NCBI RefSeq assembly: GCF_048403405.1
Contig: NZ_CP183129.1
Length of the DNA stretch: 64,000 bases
Strand: one strand, 5' to 3'
Origin: Escherichia coli
GTDB lineage: Bacteria; Pseudomonadota; Gammaproteobacteria; Enterobacterales; Enterobacteriaceae
The notes below the pieces were generated by a model. The model searched no databases. It saw only the letters and a program-made list of their open reading frames with translations, and was not told the origin of the DNA. Below are positions 1 to 37,320 of this stretch, piece by piece. The stretch's first letter is position 1. Every line of letters starts with the position of its first letter. The position numbers and the translations under genes were made by a program.

Positions 1-1556
1 CCTGCGCCCGCGTCGCCATTAACCTTTCCTCGCCGCCGAAGCAAATCTCGGCGCTGACCACTCTGAGCCACCAGCAGGAGGCGGAAATTCGCCAGCTTGA
101 GCGCGAGCTTCGCATCGGGCTGCGTACCAACACCTCACGGATGACCGAGGTGCTGGTGCAGTACGATGAAACGCTGACGGCGCTGGATGAACTGGAAGCG
201 GCCTGGCATCAGCAGCAGGCGCTGGTCCGGGAGATTATCGCGCTGCGCCAGCAGTTGCTGGGCGTGGCAGAAGACGATGCGGCGTCGTTGCCGGACGCAG
301 ATGCCGCGGAGGATACGCCGCCAGAGTCAGAGTCAGAGTCAGAGTCAGAGTCAGAGTCAGAGTCAGAGTCAGAACAGGATAATACCGGTGCCGTACCGGC
401 TGATGAGGCCGACAGAGAACAGCCGGAAGAGACCGCTGAAACAGTTTCCCCGGTACAGCGGCTGGCCCAGCTCACTGCCGAACTGGACGCCCTGCATAAC
501 GACCGGTTGCTGGTCTCCCCGCACGTCGATAAAAAACAGATTGCGGCGGTGATTGCCGAATGGACCGGCGTGCCGCTCAACCGCCTGTCGCAGAATGAAA
601 TGTCGGTCATCACCGACCTGCCGAAATTGCTGGGCGACACCATCAAAGGCCAAGACCTGGCGATTGCCAGCCTGCATAAGCATCTACTGACCGCACGCGC
701 CGACCTGCGTCTTCCGGGACGCCCGCTCGGTGCGTTCCTGCTGGCTGGCCCCAGCGGTGTGGGTAAAACCGAAACCGTCCTGCAACTGGCAGAGCTGCTC
801 TACGGCGGTCGCCAGTACCTGACCACCATCAATATGTCCGAATTCCAGGAGAAACACACCGTCTCGCGGCTGATTGGTTCGCCTCCGGGCTACGTTGGCT
901 ACGGTGAAGGCGGCGTACTGACCGAAGCGATTCGCCAGAAACCCTACTCGGTAGTACTGCTCGATGAAGTGGAAAAAGCGCACCCGGATGTGCTCAACCT
1001 GTTCTACCAGTCGTTCGATAAGGGCGAAATGGCAGACGGTGAAGGCCGCCTGATTGACTGCAAAAATATCGTCTTCTTCCTGACGTCCAACCTCGGCTAC
1101 CAGGTAATAGTCGAGCACGCCGATGACCCGGAAACCATGCAGGAAGAACTGTATCCGGTGCTGGCCGACTTCTTCAAACCTGCCCTGCTGGCGCGTATGG
1201 AAGTGGTGCCGTATCTGCCGCTGTCGAAAGAGACGCTCGCCACCATTATCGCCGGAAAACTGGCCCGTCTGGATAACGTGCTGCGCAGTCGCTTTGGTGC
1301 AGAAGTGGTCATTGAACCGGAAGTGACGGACGAAATCATGAGCCGCGTCACCCGCGCGGAAAACGGCGCGAGGATGCTGGAATCGGTCATCGATGGCGAC
1401 ATGCTACCGCCGCTCTCGCTGCTGCTGTTGCAGAAAATGGCGGCTAACACGGCGATTGCCCGGATTCGGTTGTCGGCGGTGGACGACGCATTTACGGCAG
1501 ACGTGGAAGATGCTCAGAACGACGAGTCCGTCACAAAGGATGAAACGGTTTTATGA
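1..1556 (+). CDS. clpV: T6SS AAA+ ATPase ClpV/TssH, C-terminal ~518 codons (5' end lies outside the window)
   Basis: Reading frame is open from position 3 to the TGA at 1554-1556. Translation carries the second AAA+ module (Walker A LLAGPSGVGKTE, Walker B VVLLDEVEKAHPDV) and a Clp-type C-terminal domain. Confidence 0.85.
   Translation, partial: CARVAINLSSPPKQISALTTLSHQQEAEIRQLERELRIGLRTNTSRMTEVLVQYDETLTALDELEAAWHQQQALVREIIALRQQLLGVAEDDAASLPDADAAEDTPPESESESESESESESESEQDNTGAVPADEADREQPEETAETVSPVQRLAQLTAELDALHNDRLLVSPHVDKKQIAAVIAEWTGVPLNRLSQNEMSVITDLPKLLGDTIKGQDLAIASLHKHLLTARADLRLPGRPLGAFLLAGPSGVGKTETVLQLAELLYGGRQYLTTINMSEFQEKHTVSRLIGSPPGYVGYGEGGVLTEAIRQKPYSVVLLDEVEKAHPDVLNLFYQSFDKGEMADGEGRLIDCKNIVFFLTSNLGYQVIVEHADDPETMQEELYPVLADFFKPALLARMEVVPYLPLSKETLATIIAGKLARLDNVLRSRFGAEVVIEPEVTDEIMSRVTRAENGARMLESVIDGDMLPPLSLLLLQKMAANTAIARIRLSAVDDAFTADVEDAQNDESVTKDETVL
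324..371 (+). repeat. Perfect hexanucleotide tandem repeat (GAGTCA)x8 inside clpV, encoding (Glu-Ser)8
   Basis: Eight identical GAGTCA units read directly from the sequence, in frame with clpV and followed by GAA CAG. Confidence 0.95.
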
Positions 1557-2296
1557 GCAGGTTGCGCGTTTTCCGGCAGACAGGATGGTTTATCGCGGGC
1601 CTGATGACGGGCTTACCCGCCACTGCCGCGCCCGCAGAAACATCGTCAATGGCCGGTGTGGCGGTCGCCGTCGCCACCACGACCCCGCCGGATGCGACAG
1701 CCACGTCACAGGCCATGCAGTCCTGTCGGCGGGAGTCCGCGGCGCTGGAGCGGCTTGACTGCTATGACCGCCTGCTGGCACCGCTGTCCCCGTCAGGGTT
1801 TGACGGGGCGCTGGTCAAAGCCGGTTTTGTGGGCGAGGCCTGGACCCGCGCCACAGAGCAGGAAAAACGTCGCGAGGGCAACACCACAGAACTGCTGGTG
1901 ACGCAGGTGCCGGGGGAGCGCCCGACGGTGGTGATAACCACCCCGGCTATCGGCCATGTTCCGCCGCGCCCGGTGCTGATGTTCAGTTGCGTGGACAATA
2001 TCACCCGGATGCAGGTGGCGCTGATGCACCCTCTGGATGTCCATGATATCGCCGTCACTCTGAATGCCGACAGCCGGGCATTGCGTAGCCACTGGTTTGT
2101 GCGCGAGAACGGCACCCTGCTGGAGTCCAGCCGGGGGCTGTCCGGGATTGATGAAATTAAGCAACTGTTCGGCGCAAAAACGCTGACAGTGGATACCGGC
2201 GCAGATAACGCCGCAGGAAAGCTGACCTTTAACATTGACGGGCTGGCAAGGGCGATTGCCCCCCTGCGCGTTGCCTGCCACTGGGCGGGAGAATAA
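1553..2296 (+). CDS. T6SS-associated VasI-family protein (secreted/periplasmic, N-terminal signal peptide)
   Basis: ATG at 1553 overlaps the clpV stop (ATGA). N-terminal hydrophobic signal-like segment, then an Ala/Thr/Pro-rich tract. Position between clpV and tssA matches vasI in vas-type clusters. Family assignment is from recalled architecture, not a search. Confidence 0.55.
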   Translation: MSRLRVFRQTGWFIAGLMTGLPATAAPAETSSMAGVAVAVATTTPPDATATSQAMQSCRRESAALERLDCYDRLLAPLSPSGFDGALVKAGFVGEAWTRATEQEKRREGNTTELLVTQVPGERPTVVITTPAIGHVPPRPVLMFSCVDNITRMQVALMHPLDVHDIAVTLNADSRALRSHWFVRENGTLLESSRGLSGIDEIKQLFGAKTLTVDTGADNAAGKLTFNIDGLARAIAPLRVACHWAGE

Positions 2297-2300
2297 AAAT

Positions 2301-3713
2301 ATGGCAATGGACTTACGCGATCCGAATGTCTGGATAACGCACCTGCTGGAAAACCTGCCGGAAGAAAAACTGGCATCGGCGCTGAAAGATGACAACCCGG
2401 ACTGGGAGTATATCGACGGCGAAATCGTCAAACTGGGATCTCTGGCCCACAGTCAACTGGATATCCCGGAACTCCAGCGCCGGGGGCTGGTCATTCTGGC
2501 TTCGGAGAGTAAGGACTTTCGTCTGCTGGCGCATCTGCTGAGAACCCTGCAACACGCCGGTGATCCTCATCTCGCATTGCGCCTGCTGGCGCTGTATGTG
2601 GAGCATTACTGGTCGGTGGCTGCGCCGCAGAATATGGCACATAAAAAACGCTTTGCCAGCCAGGTCATTAAACGCTTCGAAACAGGTATTGAAGGCTTTT
2701 CACAGAACGCCGCCACAGCGCAGCGCGACGCGCTGTCAGGGGAACTGGCGAAACTGGCGCAGTGCTGGCAGTCACATAACGCCCCGGAACTGGCACTGGC
2801 TACCGATGATCTTTTTGCCCTGTACCAGCGTGCGTTTAATCGTGCGGCACCGGCTCCTGCCCCCACTCCGGCGGCCTCCGATAGTTCACGACAGACCACC
2901 GCCACGTCTGAAAGCGGCGTGACGCAACCCAGTGCTCCGGCTCCCCAAATCGCCATCGACAGTCACGACGACAAAGCCTGGCGCGACACGCTGTTAAAAG
3001 TGGCGGCTATTTTATGTGAACGCCAGCCGGACTCGCCGCAGGGCTATCGCCTGCGCCGCCATGCCCTGTGGCAATCCATCACCAGTACACCCCAGGCGGA
3101 AAGCGATGGACGTACCCCATTGGCTGCGGTCTCTGCCGATATGGTGGCGGATTACCAGTCCCGGCTTGCCAGCGCGGATATGGCGCTGTGGCAGCAGGTT
3201 GAGAAAAGCGTATTGCTGGCTCCTTACTGGCTGGACGGTCACTGTCTTTCTGCACAGACGGCACTGCGTCTGGGTTACAAACAGGTGGCAGACACCATCC
3301 GCGATGAGGTCATCCGCTTCCTTGAGCGTCTGCCCCAGCTTACCGGGCTGCTGTTTAATGACCGCACACCGTTTCTCAGTGAGCAGACGAAACAATGGCT
3401 GGCAGCTTCGCCCGACGGCAAAGTTGCACCGGTTGCGCAAATCGGTGAGGAATCGCAGGCAGCCAGAGCCTGTTTTGCTGGGCAGGGTCTGGAGGCGGCG
3501 CTGCGATATCTGGACATGCTACCCGAAGGCGATCCCCGCAATCAGTTTCACCGCCAGTACCTTGCCGCACAGTTGACGGAGGAGGCGGGGCTGATACAGC
3601 TTGCGCAGCAACAGTACCGGATGTTGTTGATGATAGGGAGTCAGATGATGGTGTCTGACTGGGAGCCATCATTACTTACGCAGCTTGAACAAAAATTCAC
3701 GGCAGAACAATAA
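2301..3713 (+). CDS. tssA: T6SS protein TssA (VasJ-like, ImpA_N-type N-terminal domain)
   Basis: ATG at 2301 just after the vasI-like stop (the tracked ORF starts further upstream at 2235). About 470 aa, lying between vasI and tssM as vasJ does. Confidence 0.7.
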   Translation: MAMDLRDPNVWITHLLENLPEEKLASALKDDNPDWEYIDGEIVKLGSLAHSQLDIPELQRRGLVILASESKDFRLLAHLLRTLQHAGDPHLALRLLALYVEHYWSVAAPQNMAHKKRFASQVIKRFETGIEGFSQNAATAQRDALSGELAKLAQCWQSHNAPELALATDDLFALYQRAFNRAAPAPAPTPAASDSSRQTTATSESGVTQPSAPAPQIAIDSHDDKAWRDTLLKVAAILCERQPDSPQGYRLRRHALWQSITSTPQAESDGRTPLAAVSADMVADYQSRLASADMALWQQVEKSVLLAPYWLDGHCLSAQTALRLGYKQVADTIRDEVIRFLERLPQLTGLLFNDRTPFLSEQTKQWLAASPDGKVAPVAQIGEESQAARACFAGQGLEAALRYLDMLPEGDPRNQFHRQYLAAQLTEEAGLIQLAQQQYRMLLMIGSQMMVSDWEPSLLTQLEQKFTAEQ

Positions 3714-3731
3714 AAGAGAACAGGAGTTTTT

Positions 3732-6700
3732 GTGTTCAGATTACCAACACCCCGACTACTCAGCGGACTCAAATCAGCCCTACGCCCGGCGATGCCCCGG
3801 TTTAAAGTCTCCGCTTTCTGGCTGCTGATACTGGCGTGGATTTTTCTGCTGGTATGGATCTGGTGGAAAGGCCCGACGTGGACGCTGTATGAAGAACAGT
3901 GGCTCAAACCACTGGCGAACCGCTGGCTGGCAACGGCGGCATGGGGGATTATCGCCCTAGTGTGGCTTACCGTCCGGATGATGAAGCGCCTGCAACAGCT
4001 TGAAAAAATGCAAAAGCAGCAGCGCGAGGAGGCCATTGATCCGCTCAGTGTGGAGCTGAACGCCCAGCAGCGTTACCTTGACCGCTGGCTGCTGCGCCTG
4101 CAACGCCATCTCGACAACCGCCGTTTCCTGTGGCAGTTGCCGTGGTATATGGTCATCGGCCCGGCGGGCAGTGGCAAAACGACACTGCTGCGCGAGGGTT
4201 TTCCGTCCGACATTATTTATGCCCCGGAGGGCGCACGCGGCGCAGAACAACGCCTGTACCTCACGCCCCATGTCGGTAAACAGGCGGTGATCTTTGATAT
4301 CGACGGCACACTCTGCGCTCCCGCTGATGCGGATATCCTGCATCGCCGTCTGTGGGAACATGCCCTCGGCTGGCTGAAAGAAAAGCGCGCGCGCCAGCCG
4401 CTGAACGGGATTATTCTGACACTCGATTTACCCGATCTGCTTACCGCAGACAAACGCCGCCGCGAACATCTGTTACAGACGCTGCGCAGCCGCTTGCAGG
4501 ATATACGCCAGCATCTTCACTGCCAGTTACCGGTTTACGTGGTACTCACCCGGCTTGATTTATTGCAGGGTTTTGCCGCCCTGTTCCAGTCACTGAACAG
4601 ACAGGATCGCGATGCAATTCTAGGGGTCACGTTCACCCGCCGCGCCCATGAAAATGATGACTGGCGAACAGAGTTGAATGCTTTCTGGCAGACATGGGTG
4701 GATCGAATGAACCTAGCGTTGCCGGATCTGATGGTCGCTCAGACTCACACCCGCGCGTCTTTATTTAGTTTTTCCCGCCAGATGCAGGGAAGCCGTGAAC
4801 CACTGGTGTCACTGCTTGAGGGTCTGCTTGACGGCGAAAATATGAACGTGATGCTGCGTGGCGTCTATCTCACCTCTTCGCTTCAGCGCGGACAGATGGA
4901 TGATATTTTCACCCAGTCTGCCGCCCGCCAATACCGGCTGGGCAATAACCCACTGGCGTCCTGGCCTCTGGTGGACACCGCACCCTATTTCACCCGTAGC
5001 CTGTTCCCGCAGGCATTACTCGCAGAGCCTAATCTGGCAACAGAAAGCCGCACCTGGCTGATGCGTTCCCGTCGCCGCCTGACGGTTTTCTCTACCACAG
5101 GAGGCGTGGCGGCACTGCTGCTCATCACCGGCTGGCATCACTATTACAACGGTAACTATCAGTCCGGCATCACCGTGCTTAAGCAGGCAAAAGCCTTTAT
5201 GGATGTACCGCCTCCGCTGGGGGAAGATGATTACGGCAACCTGCAACTGCCGCTGCTGAACCCGGTACGCGATGCCACGCTGGCCTATGGCGACTGGGGC
5301 GACCGCAGCCGTCTGGCCGATATGGGACTGTACCAGGGACGGCGTATCGGGCCTTATGTGGAACAAACCTATCTGCAACTGCTGGAGCAGCGTTACCTGC
5401 CTTCGCTGTTTAACGGGCTGGTCAAAGCGATGAACGCCGCGCCGCCGGAGAGTGAGGAAAAACTCGCCGTGCTGCGTGTGATGCGAATGCTGGAGGACAA
5501 AAGCGGACGCAATAATGAGGTGGTGAAGCAGTATATGGCAAAACGCTGGAGCGAAAAATTCCACGGCCAGCGCGATATCCAGGCACAACTGATGTCCCAT
5601 CTTGACTACGCGCTGGCTCATACTGACTGGCATGCAGAGCGTCAGGCGGGCGACGGTGATGCCATCAGCCGCTGGACGCCATATGACAAGCCTGTTGCGA
5701 CAGCACAGAAAGAACTGAGCAAACTGCCTGTCTACCAGCGAGTTTACCAGAGCCTGAAAACGCGGGCGCTGGGCGTTCTTCCTGCCGACCTCAATCTGCG
5801 TGACCAGGTAGGGCCAACTTTTGACCAGGTATTTACATCTGCCGATGATAACAAACTGGTTGTTCCACAGTTTCTTACCCGTTACGGCCTGCAAAGCTAT
5901 TTTGTAAAACAGCGCGATGAACTGGTTGAACTGACGGCGATGGATTCCTGGGTACTCAACCTCACCCGCAGCGTGAAATACAGTGACGCCGACCGCGCGG
6001 AAATCCAGCGCCAGTTGACCGAGCAGTATATCAGCGACTACACCGCCACCTGGCGGGCCGGGATGGACAATCTGAATATCCGCAATTTTGAGTCCATCGG
6101 ACAACTGACCGGGGCGCTGGAGCAGGTTATCAGCGGCGACCAGCCTTTGCAGCGGGCGCTGACCGTGCTGCGTGACAACACACAGCCAGGCGTCTTTTCT
6201 GAAAAACTCTCTGCCAAAGAGCGGGATGAGACCCTGGCAGAGCCGGATTACCAGTTACTCACCCGCCTCGGGCATGAATTCGCCCCGGAAAACAGTACCC
6301 TGACAGTACAGAAAGACAAAGAAAGCACGATGCAGGCCGTATACCAGCAGCTCACCGAGTTACACCGCTACCTGCTGGCAATCCAGAACGCGCCTGTACC
6401 AGGGAAATCGGCGCTGAAAGCCGTGCAGTTAAGGCTTGATCAGAACAGCAGCGATCCAATATTCGCCACCCGCCAGATGGCAAAAACACTGCCTGCTCCG
6501 CTCAACCGCTGGGTAGGCAGGCTGGCTGACCAGGCCTGGCATGTGGTGATGGTGGAAGCCGTTCACTATATGGAAGTGGACTGGCGCGACAGCGTGGTGA
6601 AACCGTTTAACGAGCAACTGGCAAATAACTATCCGTTTAATCCACATTCTGCACAGGATGCCTCACTGGATGCCTTCGAACGATTCTTTAAACCAGATGG

Positions 6701-7256
6701 CATACTGGATACCTTCTACCAGCAGAACCTAAAGCTGTTTATCGACAATGACCTGAGTCTGGAGGATGGCGATAACAACGTCATTATTCGCGAAGATATT
6801 ATTGCGCAACTGGAAACCGCGCAGAAAATCCGTGACATATTCTTCAGCAAACAGAACGGTCTGGGAACATCCTTTGCCGTGGAAACGGTATCGCTTTCCG
6901 GCAACAAACGCCGCAGCGTACTGAACCTTGACGGTCAGTTAGTCGATTACAGCCAGGGCCGTAACTATACCGCCCATCTGGTCTGGCCTAACAATATGCG
7001 CGAAGGCAACGAAAGCAAACTGACGCTGGTTGGTGCCCGCGGCGGCGCACCGCGCAGTATCAGCTTCAGCGGGCCGTGGGCTCAGTTCCGCCTGTTCGGG
7101 GCCGGACAGCTGACCGGAGTACAGGATGGCAACTTTACCGTGCGCTTTAGTGTGGACGGTGGCGCAATGACCTACCGCGTGCATACCGACACGGAAGATA
7201 ACCCGTTCAGCGGTGGGTTATTCAGCCAGTTTGGCCTGTCAGACACACTGTACTGA
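3732..7256 (+). CDS. tssM: T6SS membrane-complex protein TssM (IcmF/VasK family)
   Basis: GTG start at 3732 preceded by AGGAG at 3722-3726. 1174 aa with N-terminal transmembrane segments and a Walker A motif (GPAGSGKTT). Confidence 0.9.
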   Translation: MFRLPTPRLLSGLKSALRPAMPRFKVSAFWLLILAWIFLLVWIWWKGPTWTLYEEQWLKPLANRWLATAAWGIIALVWLTVRMMKRLQQLEKMQKQQREEAIDPLSVELNAQQRYLDRWLLRLQRHLDNRRFLWQLPWYMVIGPAGSGKTTLLREGFPSDIIYAPEGARGAEQRLYLTPHVGKQAVIFDIDGTLCAPADADILHRRLWEHALGWLKEKRARQPLNGIILTLDLPDLLTADKRRREHLLQTLRSRLQDIRQHLHCQLPVYVVLTRLDLLQGFAALFQSLNRQDRDAILGVTFTRRAHENDDWRTELNAFWQTWVDRMNLALPDLMVAQTHTRASLFSFSRQMQGSREPLVSLLEGLLDGENMNVMLRGVYLTSSLQRGQMDDIFTQSAARQYRLGNNPLASWPLVDTAPYFTRSLFPQALLAEPNLATESRTWLMRSRRRLTVFSTTGGVAALLLITGWHHYYNGNYQSGITVLKQAKAFMDVPPPLGEDDYGNLQLPLLNPVRDATLAYGDWGDRSRLADMGLYQGRRIGPYVEQTYLQLLEQRYLPSLFNGLVKAMNAAPPESEEKLAVLRVMRMLEDKSGRNNEVVKQYMAKRWSEKFHGQRDIQAQLMSHLDYALAHTDWHAERQAGDGDAISRWTPYDKPVATAQKELSKLPVYQRVYQSLKTRALGVLPADLNLRDQVGPTFDQVFTSADDNKLVVPQFLTRYGLQSYFVKQRDELVELTAMDSWVLNLTRSVKYSDADRAEIQRQLTEQYISDYTATWRAGMDNLNIRNFESIGQLTGALEQVISGDQPLQRALTVLRDNTQPGVFSEKLSAKERDETLAEPDYQLLTRLGHEFAPENSTLTVQKDKESTMQAVYQQLTELHRYLLAIQNAPVPGKSALKAVQLRLDQNSSDPIFATRQMAKTLPAPLNRWVGRLADQAWHVVMVEAVHYMEVDWRDSVVKPFNEQLANNYPFNPHSAQDASLDAFERFFKPDGILDTFYQQNLKLFIDNDLSLEDGDNNVIIREDIIAQLETAQKIRDIFFSKQNGLGTSFAVETVSLSGNKRRSVLNLDGQLVDYSQGRNYTAHLVWPNNMREGNESKLTLVGARGGAPRSISFSGPWAQFRLFGAGQLTGVQDGNFTVRFSVDGGAMTYRVHTDTEDNPFSGGLFSQFGLSDTLY

Positions 7257-7266
7257 GGAGGCAGGG

Positions 7267-8619
7267 ATGAATAGTAACGGACTGACACAAACTATCGTTA
7301 CCGGCAGTGACCCGCGCGGGCTGCCGGAATTCAGCGCCATCCGCGAGGAAATAAACAAAGCCAGCCATCCGTCACAGCCTGAGCTGAACTGGAAACTGGT
7401 GGAGTCGCTGGCGCTGGCGATTTTTAAAGCCAACGGTGTGGATTTACACACCGCCACCTACTATACGCTTGCCCGGACACGGACACAGGGACTGGCGGGA
7501 TTCTGCGAAGGTGCGGAACTGCTGGCGGCAATGGTAAGCCACGACTGGGATAAATTCTGGCCGCAGGGCGGTCCGGCGCGTACTGAAATGCTGGACTGGT
7601 TTAACTCCCGAACCGGCAATATTCTGCGTCAGCAAATCTCCTTTGCGGAACCCGATCTGCCACTGATCTACCGCACAGAGCGGGCATTGCAGCTTATCTG
7701 CGACAAGCTTCAGCAGGTGGAGCTGAAGCGCGTTCCGCGCGTGGAGAATCTGCTCTATTTTATGCAGAACACGCGTAAGCGGCTTGAACCCCAGCCGAAG
7801 AGTAACGTTGAAAACGCCGTACAGACCACGGTTAGAACACTGATTTATGCCCCGGAAACAACGGCTTCCTCCACGCCAGAAGCGGTAGTGCCTCCCCTGC
7901 CCGACCTGCCTGAGATGAAAGTAGAAGTGCGCAGTCTGTCAGAGAATCCCCCACAGGCCAGTGTGATGAAGCAAGGCAGTACGGTAAGAGGGTTTATCAC
8001 GGGGATCGCCTGTTCAGTGGCTGTCGCCTCAGCATTGTGGTGGTGGCAGGTCTATCCGGTGCAACAGCAACTGTTACAGGTTAACGACACCGCGCAGGGC
8101 GCAGCAACGGTGTGGATGGCCTCACCTGAACTAGAAAACTATGAGCGCAGGCTACAACAGCTTCTTGGCGTCTCCCCGGTACAACCGCTGGAAACCGGGA
8201 TGCAGATGATGCGTGTTGCCGACAGTCGCTGGCCGGAAAGCCTGCAGCAGCAGCAGGCCTCGACACATTGGAATGAAGCACTCAAAACCCGCGCACAGAG
8301 TAGCCCGCAGTTGCGTGGCTGGTTGCAGACCCGTCAGGACTTACATGCTTTTGCAGATCTCGTGATGCGGCGCGAGAAAGAGGGACTAACCCTTTCCTAT
8401 ATCAAAAATGTCATCTGGCAGGCGGAGCGGGGACTGGGGCAGGAAACACCCGTTGAGTCTCTGTTGACGCAGTACCAGGATGCCCGTGCGCAGAAGCAGA
8501 ATATAGATGCGCTGGAAAAACAAATTAATGAGCGACTCGAAGGCGTGTTAATCCGCTGGCTGCTGCTGAAGAATAACGTCATGCCAGAGGCGGCAACCGG
8601 GACCACGGCCGAAAAATAA
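7267..8619 (+). CDS. VasL-like T6SS accessory protein (ImpA_N-related N-terminus, one central transmembrane helix)
   Basis: ATG at 7267 after GAGGAGG, 10 bp after the tssM stop. Predicted TM segment ITGIACSVAVASALWWW. Position after tssM corresponds to vasL. Confidence 0.6.
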   Translation: MNSNGLTQTIVTGSDPRGLPEFSAIREEINKASHPSQPELNWKLVESLALAIFKANGVDLHTATYYTLARTRTQGLAGFCEGAELLAAMVSHDWDKFWPQGGPARTEMLDWFNSRTGNILRQQISFAEPDLPLIYRTERALQLICDKLQQVELKRVPRVENLLYFMQNTRKRLEPQPKSNVENAVQTTVRTLIYAPETTASSTPEAVVPPLPDLPEMKVEVRSLSENPPQASVMKQGSTVRGFITGIACSVAVASALWWWQVYPVQQQLLQVNDTAQGAATVWMASPELENYERRLQQLLGVSPVQPLETGMQMMRVADSRWPESLQQQQASTHWNEALKTRAQSSPQLRGWLQTRQDLHAFADLVMRREKEGLTLSYIKNVIWQAERGLGQETPVESLLTQYQDARAQKQNIDALEKQINERLEGVLIRWLLLKNNVMPEAATGTTAEK

Positions 8620-8642
8620 TTATTTAATTAAAGGAGATTATC

Positions 8643-9125
8643 ATGGCAAATATGAGTTATTTATCTTTGAGTGGAGAGACACAAGGGCTGATTTCAGCAG
8701 GTTGCTCAACGCTTGATTCTGTCGGAAACAAAGCACAGCCAGAACATAAAGATCAGATCATGGTTTATGCGTTAATGCATTCCATCTCAAGAAGTCAAAA
8801 TGTCAATCATCATGAATTAATTATCACCAAACCGGTTGATAAATCCTCACCATTGCTGGCAAAAGCACTTAGTGACAATGAAAAAATGGTAACATGTGAA
8901 TTTATACTCTACCGAACCAGTAAAGCGGGTATTTACCAGCCTTATTATAAAATAAACCTGTCAAAAGCCCGAATATCAAGTATTGATTTTGTCACACCGC
9001 ATGCTGTCCTGGAAAAAGAACTGGAGCCACAGGAGAGAATTGCCTTTATTTATGAAGATATTTCCTGGGAGCATACGTTAGCCGGTACGAATGCAATGAG
9101 TAAATGGCAGGATCGTGTACAGTAA
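8643..9125 (+). CDS. hcp: Hcp-family T6SS tube protein (divergent, encoded in AT-rich DNA)
   Basis: 160 aa, AAGGAG RBS at 8631-8636. Length and motif pattern (SSPLL-KA, Y-I-L-A-I, IAF-YE-ISW) resemble Hcp. Confidence 0.75.
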   Translation: MANMSYLSLSGETQGLISAGCSTLDSVGNKAQPEHKDQIMVYALMHSISRSQNVNHHELIITKPVDKSSPLLAKALSDNEKMVTCEFILYRTSKAGIYQPYYKINLSKARISSIDFVTPHAVLEKELEPQERIAFIYEDISWEHTLAGTNAMSKWQDRVQ

Positions 9126-9168
9126 TTTACTGTAATAACATAATAAATTACTATTGCGGAGAGATATA

Positions 9169-10083
9169 ATGGCTGGTTTAAGGAATAATAACAACACACA
9201 GAATGCACAGTGGGCTGATTATGTGGGTGACATTCTTCGGGGGGCTCAACCGATAAACCAGCTAGTACCTCAGCACCCTTATCTTAACGACGTCCCACTC
9301 ATTGATGAATTAAGGCGTCAGAACACTCATCATGTTATTCTCTTGACACTTGATGTTGCAAAAAAAATACTCAGCTCAATAACATCATTTGATTACATTC
9401 ATTTTATCACTACACATCCTTCAGGTATAAAAGATACACTCGCTTGGTTAGTTAACGCGGGTAAATTAATGACTGAGTTTGATGGAAATGGGAAAATTAT
9501 ATTTAACTTTAATACCTTAAAGTATACAAAAGCAAGTTACTTTGAAATACTTGGAGAGAAATATATAAAAATTACAACATCCAGCCCCTGGCTTTTAGAA
9601 AAGCTCGGTAAATATATTTTCTCTTCACGAGCGCCTCAAGTTCTGGAACTCGCTATTGGCTGGCGAGGAGCTTTATCTGAATCAATAAAAGGAGTTAAGT
9701 TCTGTATCTGGTTTTCAGTAGCCTGGAGAACCATAGAATTTATTATGAGTTCAGAGCGAGATCTGGTTAATTTTCTTGGTGATTTTTCAATGGATGTGGC
9801 CAAAGCAGTGATTGCAGGCGGTGTTGCAACTGCTATTGGAAGCCTGGCTTCTTTTGCCTGTCTTAGTTTTGGCCTTCCAGTAATTCTTGTAGGAGGAGCA
9901 ATTTTACTTACAGGGATAGTGTGTACAGTTGTTTTAAATGAAATCGATGCTCAATACCATTTATCAGAAAAATTAAAAGATGCAATTAGAGATGGACTAA
10001 AACGGCAACAGGAACTTGATAAATGGAAAAGGGAAAACATGACTCCATTTATGTATGTTCTTAACACTTCCCCCGTGATATGA
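9169..10083 (+). CDS. Hypothetical protein; candidate Hcp-linked T6SS effector with C-terminal glycine-zipper hydrophobic helices
   Basis: ATG at 9169 with GGAG 7 nt upstream (tracked ORF begins at a TTG at 9154). AT-rich codon usage matching hcp. C-terminal segment VAKAVIAGGVATAIGSLASFACLSFGLPVILVGGAILLTGIVCTVVL. Function is inferred from context only. Confidence 0.55.
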   Translation: MAGLRNNNNTQNAQWADYVGDILRGAQPINQLVPQHPYLNDVPLIDELRRQNTHHVILLTLDVAKKILSSITSFDYIHFITTHPSGIKDTLAWLVNAGKLMTEFDGNGKIIFNFNTLKYTKASYFEILGEKYIKITTSSPWLLEKLGKYIFSSRAPQVLELAIGWRGALSESIKGVKFCIWFSVAWRTIEFIMSSERDLVNFLGDFSMDVAKAVIAGGVATAIGSLASFACLSFGLPVILVGGAILLTGIVCTVVLNEIDAQYHLSEKLKDAIRDGLKRQQELDKWKRENMTPFMYVLNTSPVI

Positions 10084-10247
10084 GGATTAACTATGCGTTT
10101 ACATGTTAAATTGAAAGAGTTTTTTTCGATGTTTTTTATAGCCATATTATTTTTCCCTGCATTCAATGCTTCTTTATTTTTTACCGGAATTAGGTGATGC
10201 TGCCAACTTACTGATTTAGTGTATGATGGTGTTTTTGAGGTGCTCCA

Positions 10248-10523
10248 GTGGCTTCTGTTTCTATCAGCTGTCCCTCCTGTTCAGCTACTGACGGGGTGGT
10301 GCGTAACGGCAAAAGCACCGCCGGACATCAGCGCTATCTCTGCTCTCACTGCCGTAAAACATGGCAACTGCAGTTCACTTACACCGCTTCTCAACCCGGT
10401 ACGCACCAGAAAATCATTGATATGGCCATGAATGGCGTTGGATGCCGGGCAACCGCCCGCATTATGGGCGTTGGCCTCAACACGATTTTCCGCCATTTAA
10501 AAAACTCAGGCCGCAGTCGGTAA
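10248..10523 (+). CDS. insA: IS1 InsA (transposition inhibitor / N-terminal part of transposase)
   Basis: 91-aa ORF beginning [43 protein letters not shown], inside IS1. Confidence 0.9.
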
Positions 10524-10945
10524 CCTCGCGCATACAGCCGGGCAGTGACGTCATCGTCTGCGCGGAAATGGACGAACAGTGGGGATACGTCGGGGCTAAA
10601 TCGCGCCAGCGCTGGCTGTTTTACGCGTATGACAGGCTCCGGAAGACGGTTGTTGCGCACGTATTCGGTGAACGCACTCTGGCCACACTGGAGCGTCTTC
10701 TAAGCCTGCTGTCGGCCTTTGAGGTCGTGGTATGGATGACGGATGGCTGGCCGCTGTATGAATCCCGCCTGAAGGGAAAGCTGCACGTAATCAGCAAGCG
10801 TTACACTCAGCGAATTGAGCGGCATAACCTGAATCTGAGACAACATCTGGCAAGGCTGGGACGGAAGTCACTGTCGTTCTCAAAATCGGTGGAGCTGCAT
10901 GACAAGGTCATCGGGCATTATCTGAACATAAAACACTATCAGTAA
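10442..10945 (+). CDS. insB: IS1 InsB reading frame (expressed as InsAB' transposase by -1 frameshifting)
   Basis: -1 frame ORF overlapping the end of insA, translation typical of IS1 InsB ([21 protein letters not shown]...). Confidence 0.88.
10496..10505 (+). promoter_or_regulatory. IS1 programmed -1 ribosomal frameshift site TTTAAAAAAC
   Basis: A6C motif lies in the insA/insB overlap; the IS1 frameshift mechanism is established knowledge. Confidence 0.8.
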
Positions 10946-11484
10946 GTTGGAGTCATTACCCGGAATTAAACCTCTATATTCAATAATAAAAGGCTCCACG
11001 GAAATATTTTATGATTGGAGAATGTTGATTCTATGCTTCGGTTTCATATCGTTTTCCTTGTTAAATATTCATGTAATTTTACTAACAATAATAAAATCAT
11101 TCTTAATAAAAAAAACAAAGGTAATCAATTTCGCCACAGACATAACAATACAGCTAACTCTTATATTTTTACTAATAGCTATCGTAATAGCACCTTTAAT
11201 AGCTCCTTTTGTCACAGGATATGTCAATGCTAATTGTCACCCCTGCGGTAATAACACGGGGATTTTCCCAGGAGCAATCTATATTAAAAATGGCATAAAA
11301 TGTAATAATGAACATATTTCTCGCAAGGAAGATTAAGCAGTTAAATAATTAAATATTCTAAAACAAACAGTTTTTAACGCCGGATTCCATGTCCTTTCTT
11401 GCACTGTCTTTGTCAGGAACAATTTCTTATGCAAAGAATTTTGTATTATTGCCGCCAGAAATTCCTGGCGGCAGATATAATTTA

Positions 11485-12270
11485 TTATTGATAGCGGTTA
11501 ACCAAATCTTTTACCATCGCTTTATAGGTCTTTTGCTTAAGTTGTATGATTTGCTGCTCTGTCATATCAGTCGTACTGGCTTCATTCTTGCCGGGAAATG
11601 GTGGAAGCACTTTATATTCATAATTCACCGGCGACCAGGCAGCCCACTCACCTGTAGCTACATCCACCAGCGTGAATCGCACCAGATAGCGCAGTGAGAT
11701 TGTGTTAGTCAGTTTTTCATTTTTATAATCGGACCATACTGTTGATTTCAGTGCAGTGTCATATTTTCCTGTCTGCAACGTATCCTGGTAAACAATAATC
11801 GCTTTCTGATGGCCTTTTGCCGCCACAAAACGTAATGCCTGCATCCAGTTCATATTTTCAGCACTGGCAACATCCTCGTTCTCATTTTTATCTTTGTTTT
11901 TGTTACAAGTCAGAGGCTTTTGTCTGTCCGGGATACCAGAGAATGTGGAAACAGTATAATATTTTCGCATCTCCTCCTGCATAATGGTTTCCGGTGCGCG
12001 ACTGCCAGACTGGACAAGTATTACGGGAGAATTGAGAGGCACACGAAACTCATCTCCTTCAAGCGCAGCCTGAATATCCTCCTCGGATACAGCCAGAGTG
12101 GTTTCATTACCGAATAAATCTTTGTCTGTCAGTTGCGGGGGAATGTTTTTATTAATATTACTTTGTGTAACTTGAACTTTTTTCTTTTTTTCATCAATAG
12201 AAGATTGAGAGGCACATCCTGCAAGCAGCGAGAATAATACACATATGCAACAAACCTTTTTTGAATTCAT
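11485..12270 (-). CDS. yafT: Lipoprotein YafT
   Basis: 261 aa with lipobox LLAGC after a signal peptide; lies next to aspV as yafT does in K-12. Confidence 0.8.
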
Positions 12271-12805: not shown

Positions 12806-13537
12806 TTATGCCCGCCAGAGGCAGCTTCCGCCCTTTTTCTGCACCAGATCGAGACGGGCTTCATGTGCCGCAAGCTCTTCATCTGTCGCAAAAACAACGC
12901 GTAACTTACTTGCCTGACGCACAATGCGCTGAATTGTTGTTTCACCTTGTTGCTGTTGTGTCTCTCCTTCCATCGCAAAAGCCATCGACGTTTGACCACC
13001 AGTCATCGCCAGATAAACTTCCGCAAGGATCTGGGCATCGAGTAATGCCCCGTGCAACGTTCGTTTACTGTTATCTATTTCGTAGCGGGCACATAACGCA
13101 TCGAGGCTGTTGCGCTTACCGGGAAACATTCTCCTCGCCACCGCAAGGCTATCGGTGACCTTACAGAAGGTATTGGTCTTCGGAATATCGCGCTTAAGCA
13201 ACGAAAACTCGTAGTCCATAAAGCCGATATCGAACGCTGCGTTATGGATCACCAACTCCGCGCCGCGAATATAGTCCATGAACTCATCGGCTACTTCGGC
13301 AAACGTGGGCTTATCGAGCAAAAATTCATCGGCAATACCATGTACGCCAAAGGCTTCCGGATCCACCAGCCGATCGGGTTTGAGATAAACATGGAAGTTA
13401 TTGCCCGTCAGGCGACGGTTCACCACTTCAACGGCACCAATCTCAATGATCTTGTGGCCTTCATAGTGCGCGCCAATCTGGTTCATACCGGTGGTTTCGG
13501 TATCGAGAACGATCTGGCGTGTAATTGCAGTGCTCAT
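12806..13537 (-). CDS. dnaQ: DNA polymerase III epsilon subunit (3'-5' proofreading exonuclease)
   Basis: Translation [20 protein letters not shown]...GGSCLWRA, 243 aa. Confidence 0.97.
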
Positions 13538-13601
13538 AGCGGTCATTTATGTCAGACTTATCGTTTTACAGTTCGATTCAATTACAGGAAGTCTACCAGA
13601 G

Positions 13602-36022: not shown

Positions 36023-37320
36023 TTAACTAAGCGTTTTCTGCCAGACAAAACTGACGCCATTCTCACCTTCAGCCACACCTTCTTGCGTCACAAATACCCC
36101 TGCCGCCGCAATCAACGTTTCGCCATAAAACAGCAGTGGCGTGGTGTCACGTAGCCACGGCGGCACACCCAGCTCTTGCCAGATTTTCTTCAGCTTACGT
36201 CCGCCGTTGCGCCCGATAATATGCAGCAATCCTGGCGCTTTGAAACGCACGCTGACCGCTTCGTCTGCACGCGGAGGGCGAATATCGCCTCCCGCAGTAA
36301 GCTGTACACTTCCCAGTCCCGCCGGTAATTCCAGCGGTTGTAGCCACGTCTGCCACGGCACAATGGTTTCGCTTTGCCCGGCAACGGATTTAATCCACCA
36401 CAGTTGCGACTGATAGCGGCGGATTTCAAACGCGCCCAGACGTAAACAGGGGGAAGCATCTTCCCGCGCCAGCGCCACTTCCTGCCAGATCCGCACCAGC
36501 GCGTCGCGGGAAGGCATCGGTGCATTCTGCCCTGCCAGCCAGCGGCGGATAATTGCCGCGCGACGGGCATCACTCATCGCCAGCATTGGCGCAATCTGCA
36601 GCGTCCCCTGCGGCGTTTGGCAGTGCGCTAAATCATCTGCCAGCAATTCATCCAGCAGGCTCTCTTGTTCAGCACAAAGTGCGGCGCTGCGGGCCGTTGC
36701 GTCGGCAAAATGCGGCCAACGCTGCTGCAATAACGGCACTACGCGCAGGCGCAGAAAGTTACGATCGTATGAGTCGTCCTGATTACTTTCGTCTTCAATC
36801 CAGCGTAAACCATGCGCCAATGCCCACTGCTCCAGTTCCCCCGCGTGCGGGCGAGCAACGGGCGGATAAGCCGTGTTCCGGCAAACTCCGAAACTTCCGC
36901 CATAGCCGAAAGCCCGGCAGGGCCGCTACCGCGTTTTAGCGCCAGCAGAAAGGTTTCACATTGATCGTCGAGATGTTGCGCGGTGACCAGCACTTCGCCG
37001 GGCAATAGGGTACGGGCAAATGCCTGATAACGCGCCTGCCGCGCCTGGGCCTCAATCCCCAGCCCCTCTTGCGCAAGTTGTACGCGTTCGACCACCAGCG
37101 GCACCTGCCACTGTTGGCAGATGTTCTCGCAATGCCTAACCCAGGCATCGGCATTGGCACTTAAACCGTGATGCACATGGATAGCGCGTAGAGTGACGCC
37201 CGGATTTTCCGTCCGCCACTGCACCAACTGATGCAGCAAAACGGTGGAGTCAAGCCCGCCGCTAAAGGCCACCAGAATCTGGCGTGAGGTGAGAAGTTGT
37301 CTATTGAGCGTGAGTGTCAT
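36023..37320 (-). pseudogene. tilS: tRNA(Ile)-lysidine synthetase TilS, reading frame broken by an apparent 1-bp deletion in a homopolymer (C5 on plus strand at 36838-36842)
   Basis: The N-terminal half (36739-37320, with the SGGLDS PP-loop) and C-terminal half (36023-36820) are in different frames. One extra G in the minus-strand run would join ...LLARTRG to [17 protein letters not shown]... Confidence 0.8.

Follow-up and report, generated by a model that had tools for sequence, protein, structure and literature searches.

An IS1 insertion interrupts ykfM, a predicted Tmi-type immunity gene next to the T6SS effector gene tme in Escherichia coli

[quoted passage not shown] 2020, PMC7046647). 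Periplasmic forms of both effectors are toxic, whereas cytoplasmic Tme1 is harmless and cytoplasmic Tme2 slows growth; in depolarisation and propidium-iodide assays both resemble VasX (PMC7046647). Other T6SS effectors that depolarise the inner membrane from the periplasm and are countered by membrane-protein immunity include Tke5 of P. putida, Ssp4/Ssp6 of Serratia and VasX of V. cholerae; their titles and abstracts present them as separate families, and no sequence relationship to Tme was found here.

In the survey that named the family, a Tme was recognised by a DxxK motif, a predicted transmembrane (TM) helix and a flanking Asp, with an adjacent T6SS gene in a genome encoding a T6SS; a Tmi immunity protein, drawn from the DUF1240-like proteins, was recognised by a gene on the same strand at most 50 bp downstream of the Tme gene, 3-6 predicted TM helices and the lack of a signal peptide (Fridman et al. 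2020, PMC7046647). Supplementary Data 5 of that study already catalogues an E. coli pair, tme-ykfM, as a membrane-disrupting Tme effector and its downstream partner: WP_000908072.1 has a Tme domain at residues 122-277 (E=1.7e-37 with the published PSSM), the Hcp WP_000002621.1 is encoded upstream, and WP_001236628.1, with 3 TM helices, is encoded downstream at a distance of 9 bp (PMC7046647). In the literature searched, no paper mentioning ykfM ties it to T6SS immunity, nothing was found that joins yafU with type VI secretion, and no experiments on the E. coli Tme protein were found.

Here we present an analysis of a 64,000-nt stretch of E. coli DNA (contig NZ_CP183129.1; "the window" below) in which the downstream partner is split by an insertion sequence. 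The explanation that we consider probable as a whole is that IS1 broke a Tmi-type immunity gene, ykfM, which is paired with an Hcp-linked Tme and is the last gene of the aspV T6SS cluster.

The aspV-linked cluster runs in the order tssH-vasI-tssA-tssM-vasL-hcp, with tme at its end. In the window, tssM (3732-7256, + strand) encodes the T6SS membrane-complex subunit, has the same operon direction and is 100% identical to the annotated tssM of E. coli MS 69-1 (NZ_CP146675.1). It is followed by a VasL-domain or TssA-like gene (7267-8619, +), recognised from NCBIfam TssA-family matches and the RefSeq annotation in MS 69-1, and by hcp (8643-9125, +), which encodes the 160-aa TssD tube protein (TIGR03344, E=1e-60; WP_000002621.1 in MS 69-1) directly upstream of tme (9169-10083, +). 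The tme gene is intact and encodes a 304-aa Tme-family effector, its DNA being identical to that for WP_000908072.1 in MS 69-1; indeed tme and every T6SS gene that the window contains are intact and match that strain base for base. The window covers just the distal third of the cluster, and from MS 69-1 we infer that the T6SS apparatus of the present strain is probably intact. Beyond ykfM lies the lipoprotein gene yafT (11485-12270, - strand; identified by its ORF and by the RefSeq annotation of identical DNA), which is convergent with ykfM; ykfM is thus last in the T6SS transcription unit, and an IS1 within it has no downstream gene on which to exert polarity.

The E. coli Tme shares with its Vibrio counterparts the DxxK motif, the predicted TM helix and the flanking Asp, and its gene adjoins a T6SS gene, hcp, which lies directly upstream. 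The protein consists of a conserved N-terminal region of ~45 aa and a C-terminal part with D209-V-A-K212, a hydrophobic Gly-rich stretch (~213-256) and D260; D209, K212 and D260 are invariant in an alignment of 10 homologs whose identity goes down to 35%. Neither Pfam nor NCBIfam yielded a match to WP_000908072.1. Unlike the Vibrio tme genes, E. coli tme stands directly after hcp in the main cluster and not at an orphan locus, and, unlike that of Vibrio Tme1, its conserved ~45-residue N-terminal region is not a RIX domain. Identification of this region as RIX was considered and rejected, RIX being restricted to Vibrionaceae and Moritellaceae; a paper on the ETEC T6SS mentions Tme1 solely because the RIX profile derives from it, and no cargo effectors were found there.

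As in the Vibrio pairs, the gene directly downstream of tme codes for a small 3-TM DUF1240-like protein. The gap between tme and ykfM is 9 bp on the same strand, and the Shine-Dalgarno sequence of ykfM, GAGGA, overlaps the tme stop codon, which suggests translational coupling. A prior sequence-only reading of the window had proposed that deletion of a 768-bp IS1 and one of two identical 8-bp repeats joins 33 codons starting at the ATG at 10093 in frame to an ORF ending at 11336, that a stop-free frame of this length was unlikely by chance, and that the product was a polytopic membrane protein. The present analysis bears out all of these. Positions 10093-10192 and 10969-11336, once joined, make up 468 nt, or 155 codons plus stop; given the base composition of the ORF itself (29.7% GC), the chance of 155 stop-free codons is ~6e-6. 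The restored ORF matches annotated intact ykfM at 468/468 nt (100% identity), and its protein is the 155-aa ykfM product of MS 69-1, WP_001236628.1. Kyte-Doolittle analysis of the restored protein finds three hydrophobic segments (~10-33, 51-81 and 85-121), and the published Phobius topology for WP_001236628.1 gives 3 TM helices (i12-32 o 52-75 i 96-119 o) with a periplasmic C-terminal tail (Fridman et al. 2020, PMC7046647).

The two fragments divide this protein unequally. The 5' fragment of ykfM (tmi) (10093-10192, +) comprises codons 1-33 and the first base of codon 34, encodes TM1 and runs on to a TGA within IS1 (10195-10197), so that a 34-aa peptide is predicted. The 3' fragment (10969-11336, +) comprises the remainder of codon 34 through codon 155 and the stop, and encodes the last two helices, TM2 and TM3, as well as the C-terminal tail, where the family-conserved residues C126 and C145 are located. 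It also contains an A8 homopolymer (11108-11115, +; codons ~80-83), the site of an A8-to-A7 frameshift in other genomes.

The interrupting element is a complete 768-bp IS1 at 10193-10960 (+), identified from its sequence and from matching DNA in RefSeq, where it is called an IS1-like / IS1A family transposase with programmed frameshift. Its terminal inverted repeats, GGTGATGCTGCCAACTTACTGAT and GGTAATGACTCCAACTTACTGAT, are imperfect, matching at 19/23 positions. Both insA (10248-10523, 91 aa) and the insB frame (10442-10945, 167 aa) are intact, as is the A6C slippery motif TTAAAAAAC at 10497 (IS1 position 305), the site of insA/insB' -1 frameshifting; it is the single IS1 copy in the window. 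The element is flanked by 8-bp target-site duplications, CGGAATTA, at 10185-10192 and 10961-10968, and CGGAATTA occurs once in the empty sites of MS 69-1 and of strain 4621. A literal reading makes the direct repeat 9 bp long (CCGGAATTA, at 10184-10192 and at 10960-10968), since the terminal C of IS1 equals the base preceding the left repeat. A 9-bp duplication of CCGGAATTA is indistinguishable by sequence from an 8-bp duplication around a full-length IS1, and the 8-bp version was kept as the simpler. A functional-looking IS1 has inserted itself into ykfM at codon 34, immediately past the first TM helix. The copy agrees throughout with the description of the IS1 family (768 bp, duplications of 8-9 bp, AT-rich targets), its target having 29.7% GC, and compared with other gene inactivations by IS1 nothing is unusual except the identity of the interrupted gene.

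With IS1 and one repeat removed, the window is collinear with MS 69-1 over 63,224 nt across the insertion point, and the two differ by one SNP and one single-base indel in those 63,224 nt. The indel, a one-base deletion in a homopolymer (~36838-36842), frameshifts the essential gene tilS. The presence of IS1 raised the thought of a Shigella origin for the window, which was rejected in view of this near-identity with E. coli MS 69-1 and of the single IS1 copy.

Uninterrupted ykfM is present in 2,997 of 5,426 complete E. coli genomes. A 160-nt query spanning the IS1/ykfM junction had no full-length match in any of the 5,426, and because of this absence we regard the insertion as recent and strain-specific; it is a very recent event in a clone otherwise almost identical to MS 69-1. 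The ORF is continuous across the insertion point and annotated in relatives free of IS1, and it is conserved in Escherichia, in Salmonella and, more distantly, in Rahnella, with dN/dS of 0.17-0.41, consistent with purifying selection. These uninterrupted alleles uphold the original proposal of a real, recently disrupted gene.

A near-identical relative and a private junction are also what one would see if the insertion were foreign to the natural strain, either an artefact of assembly or the result of IS1 hopping while an MS 69-1-like isolate was passaged in the laboratory, and the frameshift in an essential gene suggests a sequencing error in the assembly. We consider this origin highly improbable, since a complete IS1 within a perfect 8-bp duplication of a sequence that is single in the empty site is the hallmark of genuine transposition and not of mis-assembly. 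An origin in the host and one in culture look alike by sequence, and the nature of the allele is the same in either case.

In contrast to the Vibrio system, YkfM has diverged too far for a direct match to Pfam DUF1240 (PF06836): hmmscan found no significant match of YkfM to it, and a search of NCBIfam found nothing significant. A match to Toxin_14 (E=0.04, 10 residues) was dismissed as a coincidence of Cys pattern. A YkfM-family profile was searched against 1.8 billion representatives, and among the 16 proteins in the resulting alignment of YkfM with its relatives, DUF1240 matches were obtained for seven at E<=0.001 and for 13 at E<=0.1. The Salmonella orthologue (49% identity, BLASTP E=2e-45) carries PF06836, as does a relative, P0031, with 68% identity to YkfM. 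By these homologies YkfM would count as DUF1240-like, though only transitively, in the sense used by Fridman et al. 2020.

Comparison of cassettes supports the same assignment. The order Hcp-Tme-DUF1240 is common to E. coli, Salmonella and two further loci (L017 and L018), and in Rahnella the Tme-DUF1240 pair adjoins a convergent hcp; in all five divergent cassettes Tme is followed by a DUF1240-like 3-TM protein. Furthermore, the Tme C-terminus and the immunity protein change together behind a conserved N-terminus, as in L018, where Hcp retains 95.6% identity yet Tme has 37% and Tmi 32%. On the basis of homology, synteny and the published supplementary table, the proposal that ykfM is the cognate immunity gene is supported, and we treat it as a predicted Tmi-type immunity gene of Tme.

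Orphan immunity genes are commonly retained after effector loss in T6SS effector-immunity modules. K-12 has such a configuration: its ykfM (b4586), an ortholog with 92% aa identity in the same place between the T6SS-side remnant and yafT, is intact (159 aa) and orphaned, with tme truncated beside an ISAs1 remnant and the T6SS cluster absent. In strain 4621, tme has a nonsense mutation and ykfM is intact. Configurations of this kind are expected of effector-immunity modules.

K-12 also provides an argument for a different function. A K-12 ykfM::Tn5 mutant shows a hyperlethal response to nalidixic acid, mitomycin C and peroxide, in a background with neither a T6SS nor a functional tme, and stress lethality is the only K-12 ykfM phenotype in the literature searched; this could reflect another or an additional role of YkfM. 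Taken to its end, the argument would make YkfM a small inner-membrane stress-tolerance protein whose gene happens to adjoin the T6SS cluster, and the IS1 event a neutral one that struck an AT-rich gene the cell can do without. The lack of a direct Pfam or NCBIfam match would suit that account, as would the ykfM frameshifts described below, which lie beside intact tme in the loci inspected. Against it are the coupling suggested by the 9-bp spacing and by the Shine-Dalgarno sequence over the tme stop, the DUF1240-like 3-TM protein after Tme in every divergent cassette, the co-variation of partner and toxin C-terminus next to a nearly constant Hcp, and the usual retention of orphan immunity genes, of which K-12 would be a case. 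The Vibrio DUF1240-like proteins, moreover, protect specifically against their cognate Tme (PMC7046647). We therefore judge a stress-tolerance protein unconnected with immunity to be an unlikely explanation of the locus.

The IS1 allele is probably null or strongly hypomorphic, since the 5' part encodes a 34-aa peptide and the 3' part lacks a promoter-like site at the junction, a properly spaced ribosome-binding site and TM1. Some features of the junction would favour residual function, with the C-terminal two-thirds of YkfM still made by read-through out of IS1 or the T6SS operon or from a promoter created by IS1, immunity retained and the insertion silent. IS1 and ykfM are co-oriented, and the ykfM frame is open back into the IS1 end; the first in-frame ATG of the 3' fragment (M52, at 11022) has a GGAG close by; and the conserved C126, G131, Y138, K140 and C145 all lie within the part that is kept. 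IS1 insertions are also reportedly able to create hybrid promoters, a finding ascribed to Prentki et al. in 1986. A promoter scan of the + strand from the IS1 promoter region to 11410, however, returned no sigma-70-like site. The GGAG is just 1 nt upstream of the M52 ATG, too near for efficient initiation; the loss of TM1 makes membrane insertion and topology uncertain; and an exact look-up in a large protein collection recorded neither predicted truncated product (104 aa from M52, 129 aa from a TTG in IS1). Retained immunity through such a fragment is very unlikely in our assessment. A candidate hybrid promoter made up of TTGGAG at 10947 and TATATT at 10975 was examined by eye and discarded, the two elements being 22 nt apart, which is too far.

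What a null allele would mean for the cell depends on how Tme acts, for which the family suggests a pathway. Tme would ride on the T6SS tube or spike, probably by way of the neighbouring Hcp and its own conserved N-terminal stretch of ~45 residues, and would be injected into the periplasm of neighbours. There its C-terminal DxxK-TM-D domain would insert into the inner membrane, dissipating membrane potential and permeabilising the membrane. YkfM, with three TM helices, a predicted periplasmic tail and a conserved Cys pair, would neutralise the cognate Tme in the membrane or periplasm. A cell with the IS1 allele would presumably not be poisoned from within, Tme1 and Tme2 being toxic from the periplasm; it would be vulnerable, each time the T6SS fires, to Tme from sisters or from relatives with the same allele. 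The expectation in the sequence-only reading that the strain is sensitive to its own effector should accordingly be taken to mean sensitivity to what sister cells deliver through the T6SS.

That reading had allowed two escapes from sensitivity, an outward promoter in IS1 and silence of the upstream module. For the former the promoter scan gave no sequence support. The latter is supported indirectly by data on EHEC, whose aspV T6SS cluster has a mean RPKM of 5.7, compared with 198 for the genome as a whole, and loses its repression when hns is mutated; the EHEC cluster was likened to the present one by its locus and gene content as published. The mutation is probably tolerated because the cluster is normally silenced by H-NS, a view suggested by the harm that Tme1 does from the periplasm only, taken together with the in vitro silencing of the EHEC aspV cluster by H-NS. 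Were the aspV T6SS de-repressed, the strain should be killed through Tme by its own kin or by MS 69-1-like relatives. A second copy of the immunity gene was sought with tblastn, and no ykfM/DUF1240 paralogue was found elsewhere in the 64-kb window.

The gene pair was already catalogued, and the insertion is an ordinary IS event with a clear explanation, in which a T6SS specialist will find nothing surprising. The analysis does connect a K-12 y-gene, annotated just as "protein YkfM", with the Tmi (DUF1240-like) family, and its status as an orphan immunity gene would explain why K-12 keeps ykfM beside a tme remnant. It also portrays the effector-immunity module as evolutionarily labile in E. coli, with recurrent decay of either partner: by IS1 in the present strain, by an A-tract frameshift in 45 complete genomes, by a nonsense mutation in tme in strain 4621 and by truncation of tme in K-12.

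In the 45 complete genomes with the A-tract frameshift, ykfM has gone from A8 to A7, and tme is intact beside it in CFSAN061763 and in 4/6 sampled loci. Recurrent loss of ykfM beside intact tme can be read as a sign that immunity can be dispensed with and that the pair is accordingly no active effector-immunity system in those lineages. One may also speculate, and we think it unlikely, that loss of YkfM with Tme kept is a recurrent and possibly switchable state of E. coli, reached through the slippage-prone A8 tract or, as here, through IS1. If immunity underwent phase variation or were lost again and again, the aspV T6SS might serve to kill siblings or to police subpopulations; alternatively, Tme of E. 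coli may have been turned towards targets that are non-kin or eukaryotic, which would make immunity dispensable. In many short-read assemblies, contigs end exactly at the A8 tract of ykfM, which would fit length heterogeneity within the culture.

An IS1 element of 768 bp, recognized by its terminal inverted repeats, insA/insB and the A6C motif, interrupts ykfM at 10193-10960. The inverted repeats (GGTGATGCTGCCAACTTACTGAT and GGTAATGACTCCAACTTACTGAT) match at 19 of 23 positions in a scripted reconstruction of the locus; insA (10248-10523, 91 aa) and the insB frame (10442-10945) are both intact, with the slippery motif at 10497. Direct repeats of CGGAATTA flank the element (10185-10192 on the left, 10961-10968 on the right). 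Since the base preceding the left repeat is the same as the C with which IS1 ends, a literal reading makes the repeat 9 bp long (CCGGAATTA); a full-length IS1 with a duplication of 8 bp is the simpler interpretation. The 768-bp element and identical 8-bp repeats described in the sequence-only reading were borne out both by reading of the sequence and by the scripted rebuild.

That reading had also claimed that excision joins a membrane-protein frame, which was confirmed: 10093-10192 joined to 10969-11336 gives 468 nt, or 155 codons plus a stop, encoding three strongly hydrophobic segments (~10-33, 51-81 and 85-121). The restored ORF is 29.7% GC, versus 51.6% for the window, and the earlier argument that so long an open frame is improbable by chance holds, with a probability of ~6e-6 for 155 stop-free codons computed with the ORF's own composition. 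The restored sequence is identical, at 468/468 nt, to the annotated intact ykfM of E. coli strain 4621, and the intact gene is annotated in E. coli MS 69-1 as ykfM (WP_001236628.1, 155 aa). The proposed search for an uninterrupted allele in related genomes found one in 2,997 of 5,426 complete E. coli genomes. With dN/dS values of 0.17-0.41, versus 0.05-0.09 for hcp, ykfM is constrained yet fast-evolving. Residue 122 of YkfM is Cys in the MS 69-1 type (NANCHPCG) and Tyr in nearly all other alleles (NANYHPCG); Cys122 is a third cysteine near the conserved C126/C145 pair.

The empty insertion site is preserved in MS 69-1, where window positions 1-10192 and 10969-34000 match at 100% to adjoining coordinates (4145669-4155860 and 4155861-4178892, respectively). 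After removal of IS1 and one repeat, the whole window aligns collinearly with MS 69-1 along 63,224 nt, the only differences being one mismatch and one single-base indel. Moreover, a 160-nt query spanning the left IS1/ykfM junction had no full-length match in the 5,426 complete E. coli genomes, which marks the insertion as young and confined to this strain. The proposal that a real gene had recently been disrupted is upheld by the annotated intact alleles elsewhere and by the absence of the junction from those genomes.

The sole SNP relative to MS 69-1 in 63 kb, at 13019, lies in dnaQ (12806-13546, minus strand). Position 176 of the DnaQ ORF is Glu in the window, in K-12 and in other strains, and Asp in the MS 69-1 complete genome; the window therefore has the common allele of the proofreading subunit. 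The indel, at ~36838-36842, is one C fewer than the C6 run of MS 69-1 and lies inside tilS (minus strand, about 36023-37320), where it cuts the 436-codon frame of this essential tRNA lysidine synthetase gene in two. The missing C most likely stems from a homopolymer error in sequencing or assembling the window's source, and an error of this kind cannot produce an IS1 with a target duplication.

The window covers the distal part of a T6SS cluster only. Upstream of ykfM and on the same strand lie a partial tssH, vasI and tssA, followed by tssM (3732-7256), a VasL-domain gene (7267-8619), hcp (8643-9125; TIGR03344, E=1e-60) and the 304-aa predicted effector ORF, tme (9169-10083). The gap between tme and ykfM is 9 bp, and the ykfM Shine-Dalgarno sequence, GAGGA, overlaps the tme stop codon. 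Downstream are yafT, then tRNA-Asp (aspV) and dnaQ; since yafT is convergent, the T6SS unit ends with ykfM and there is no downstream gene on which IS1 could exert polarity.

Neither Tme nor YkfM gave a significant match in Pfam or NCBIfam scans. Nevertheless, the pair has been tabulated. Fridman et al. (2020, PMC7046647), the only mention of DUF1240 in the literature searched, described a family of T6SS membrane-disrupting effectors, Tme, whose C-terminal domain has a near-invariant DxxK, a predicted TM helix and a flanking Asp, and proposed DUF1240 and DUF1240-like proteins (Tmi) as the immunity family. Competition assays with two Vibrio pairs demonstrated that delivery depends on the T6SS and that Tmi confers immunity; the Vibrio toxins caused loss of membrane potential and propidium-iodide uptake, with rescue specific to the cognate Tmi. 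Supplementary Data 5 of that work lists WP_000908072.1 of MS 69-1 (304 aa, Tme domain at 122-277, E=1.7e-37), with Hcp WP_000002621.1 upstream and WP_001236628.1 (155 aa, 3 TMH) 9 bp downstream. Because the DNA is identical to that of MS 69-1, these are the proteins encoded here, in the intact form of ykfM.

Our own comparisons point the same way. An alignment of ten homologs, the most distant at 35% identity, shows D209 and K212 of the DxxK motif, together with D260, to be invariant, and these residues flank a hydrophobic, glycine-rich stretch at 213-256. Homologs of Tme are few; outside E. coli they come from Salmonella (63%) and Rahnella (39%), plus a handful of metagenomic sequences (33-36%). 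At every readable locus (Salmonella, Rahnella and the further loci L017 and L018, with divergent cassettes), the next gene encodes a 147-160-aa membrane protein matching Pfam DUF1240; hcp lies directly upstream of the tme homolog in Salmonella, L017 and L018, and is convergent and just downstream in Rahnella. YkfM is 49% identical to the Salmonella DUF1240 protein (E=2e-45). A YkfM-family profile recovered only 34 relatives among 1.8 billion representative proteins. When YkfM and 15 mostly full-length profile matches were compared with DUF1240, 7 of the 16 matched at E<=0.001 and 13 at E<=0.1, which makes YkfM DUF1240-like transitively, as Fridman et al. (2020) use the term. The family-wide conserved residues C126, G131, Y138, K140 and C145 are all in the C-terminal tail, which is periplasmic in the published Phobius topology (PMC7046647). 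The suggestion that ykfM is the cognate immunity gene of the upstream effector is accordingly favored by the published listing, the DUF1240-like relatives and synteny, which make that role probable. The Tme/YkfM system is an already catalogued Tme/Tmi member, and gene disruption by IS1 is routine.

The 5' fragment of ykfM now stops at a TGA inside IS1, for a predicted peptide of 34 aa that is essentially TM1, and the 3' fragment has lost TM1 and retains TM2, TM3 and the conserved tail. It had been suggested that the downstream fragment might be expressed from an IS1-derived outward promoter; a promoter scan of the right IS1 junction gave this no backing, finding no sigma-70-like site. The first in-frame ATG (M52, 11022) has GGAG only 1 nt upstream. 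Expression of the 3' fragment is doubtful on these three grounds: promoter, GGAG spacing and missing TM1. We infer that the IS1 allele is probably null or strongly hypomorphic.

The tme gene is intact in the window, and the strain had been expected to be sensitive to its own effector. This expectation would hold for delivery by other cells, but not for poisoning from within. Of the two characterized Tme proteins, Tme1 is toxic only from the periplasm and has no effect from the cytoplasm, and Tme2 slows growth from the cytoplasm and is far more harmful in the periplasm (Fridman et al. 2020, PMC7046647). By analogy, the producer should escape poisoning from within, and would be expected to be sensitive to Tme that sister cells or close relatives inject upon T6SS firing. 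The aspV-associated T6SS cluster of EHEC had a mean RPKM of 5.7 in vitro, versus 198 genome-wide, and was de-repressed in an hns mutant (Wan et al. 2017). Should the cluster in this strain be silenced likewise, losing immunity would be close to neutral under most conditions.

The toxin-intact, immunity-broken state is not unique to this strain. The ykfM gene has an A8 tract at 11108-11115, for which a widespread E. coli allele, A7, is a frameshift; in strain CFSAN061763 the A7 ykfM is flagged 'frameshifted' by RefSeq and tme is intact. Of 6 sampled loci, 4 encode the full 304 aa of Tme. Exact matches in complete genomes number 254 records for the A8 81-mer and 45 for the A7 80-mer; in K-12-type alleles the tract is interrupted (ATCAAAAAAAC). 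A large collection has at least 1,000 contigs with the frameshift product, 52 with the exact 155-aa intact YkfM and 263 with the exact Tme. Dozens of short-read assemblies encode a partial YkfM of 70-76 aa starting at the A tract (P0104-P0116; window ~11100-11336), on contigs of ~10.0 kb, which is how far the rrn operon lies from the tract; the contigs therefore break at the tract. These breaks may reflect within-culture A7/A8 heterogeneity, a phase-variation-like slippage, or an assembler effect. That immunity is switchable or repeatedly lost while the toxin is retained seems to us quite improbable. Recurrent ykfM decay is not explicit in the literature searched and has modest annotation value.

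The reverse state, orphan immunity, occurs as well. In K-12 (L003, 4635-4991), only the C-terminal part of tme is left, beside an ISAs1 transposase remnant, and in strain 4621 (L002, 11077-11991) a Trp codon within tme is replaced by a stop; ykfM is intact in both. None of the ykfM papers listed in the literature searched is about T6SS, and the identity of the K-12 gene of that name as a probable Tmi-type orphan immunity gene, of modest annotation value, is not explicit there.

In sequence comparisons, the cassette varies as a polymorphic toxin module would. The Hcp of L018 is 95.6% identical to that of the window, its Tme 37% overall (80% over the N-terminal 45 residues, 30% over the C-terminal toxin) and its Tmi 32% identical to YkfM. 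The N-terminal ~45 residues of Tme (9169-9303; MAGLRxNxKTQNAQWxDYVGDILRGxQPINQLVPQHPYL) are 67-80% identical in the enterobacterial cassettes (Salmonella L007, L017 and L018), with toxin domains down to 30-55%; the Rahnella figure is 38%. The pattern is consistent with a determinant of delivery or loading for the adjoining Hcp. A RIX domain was rejected, RIX being confined to Vibrionaceae and Moritellaceae. A conserved, non-RIX N-terminus of ~45 residues in enterobacterial Hcp-linked Tme is not explicit in the literature searched and is of modest annotation value. Finally, in Salmonella (L007, 9586-11010) the first Tme-DUF1240 pair is followed downstream by the degraded remains of another Tme-like ORF, in pieces of 169 and 43 aa, which shares the N-terminal ~68 residues. 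A second DUF1240 gene comes next; its protein and the partner of the Tme in L017 share 93% identity, and the locus looks like a small effector-immunity cassette array with an orphan immunity gene.
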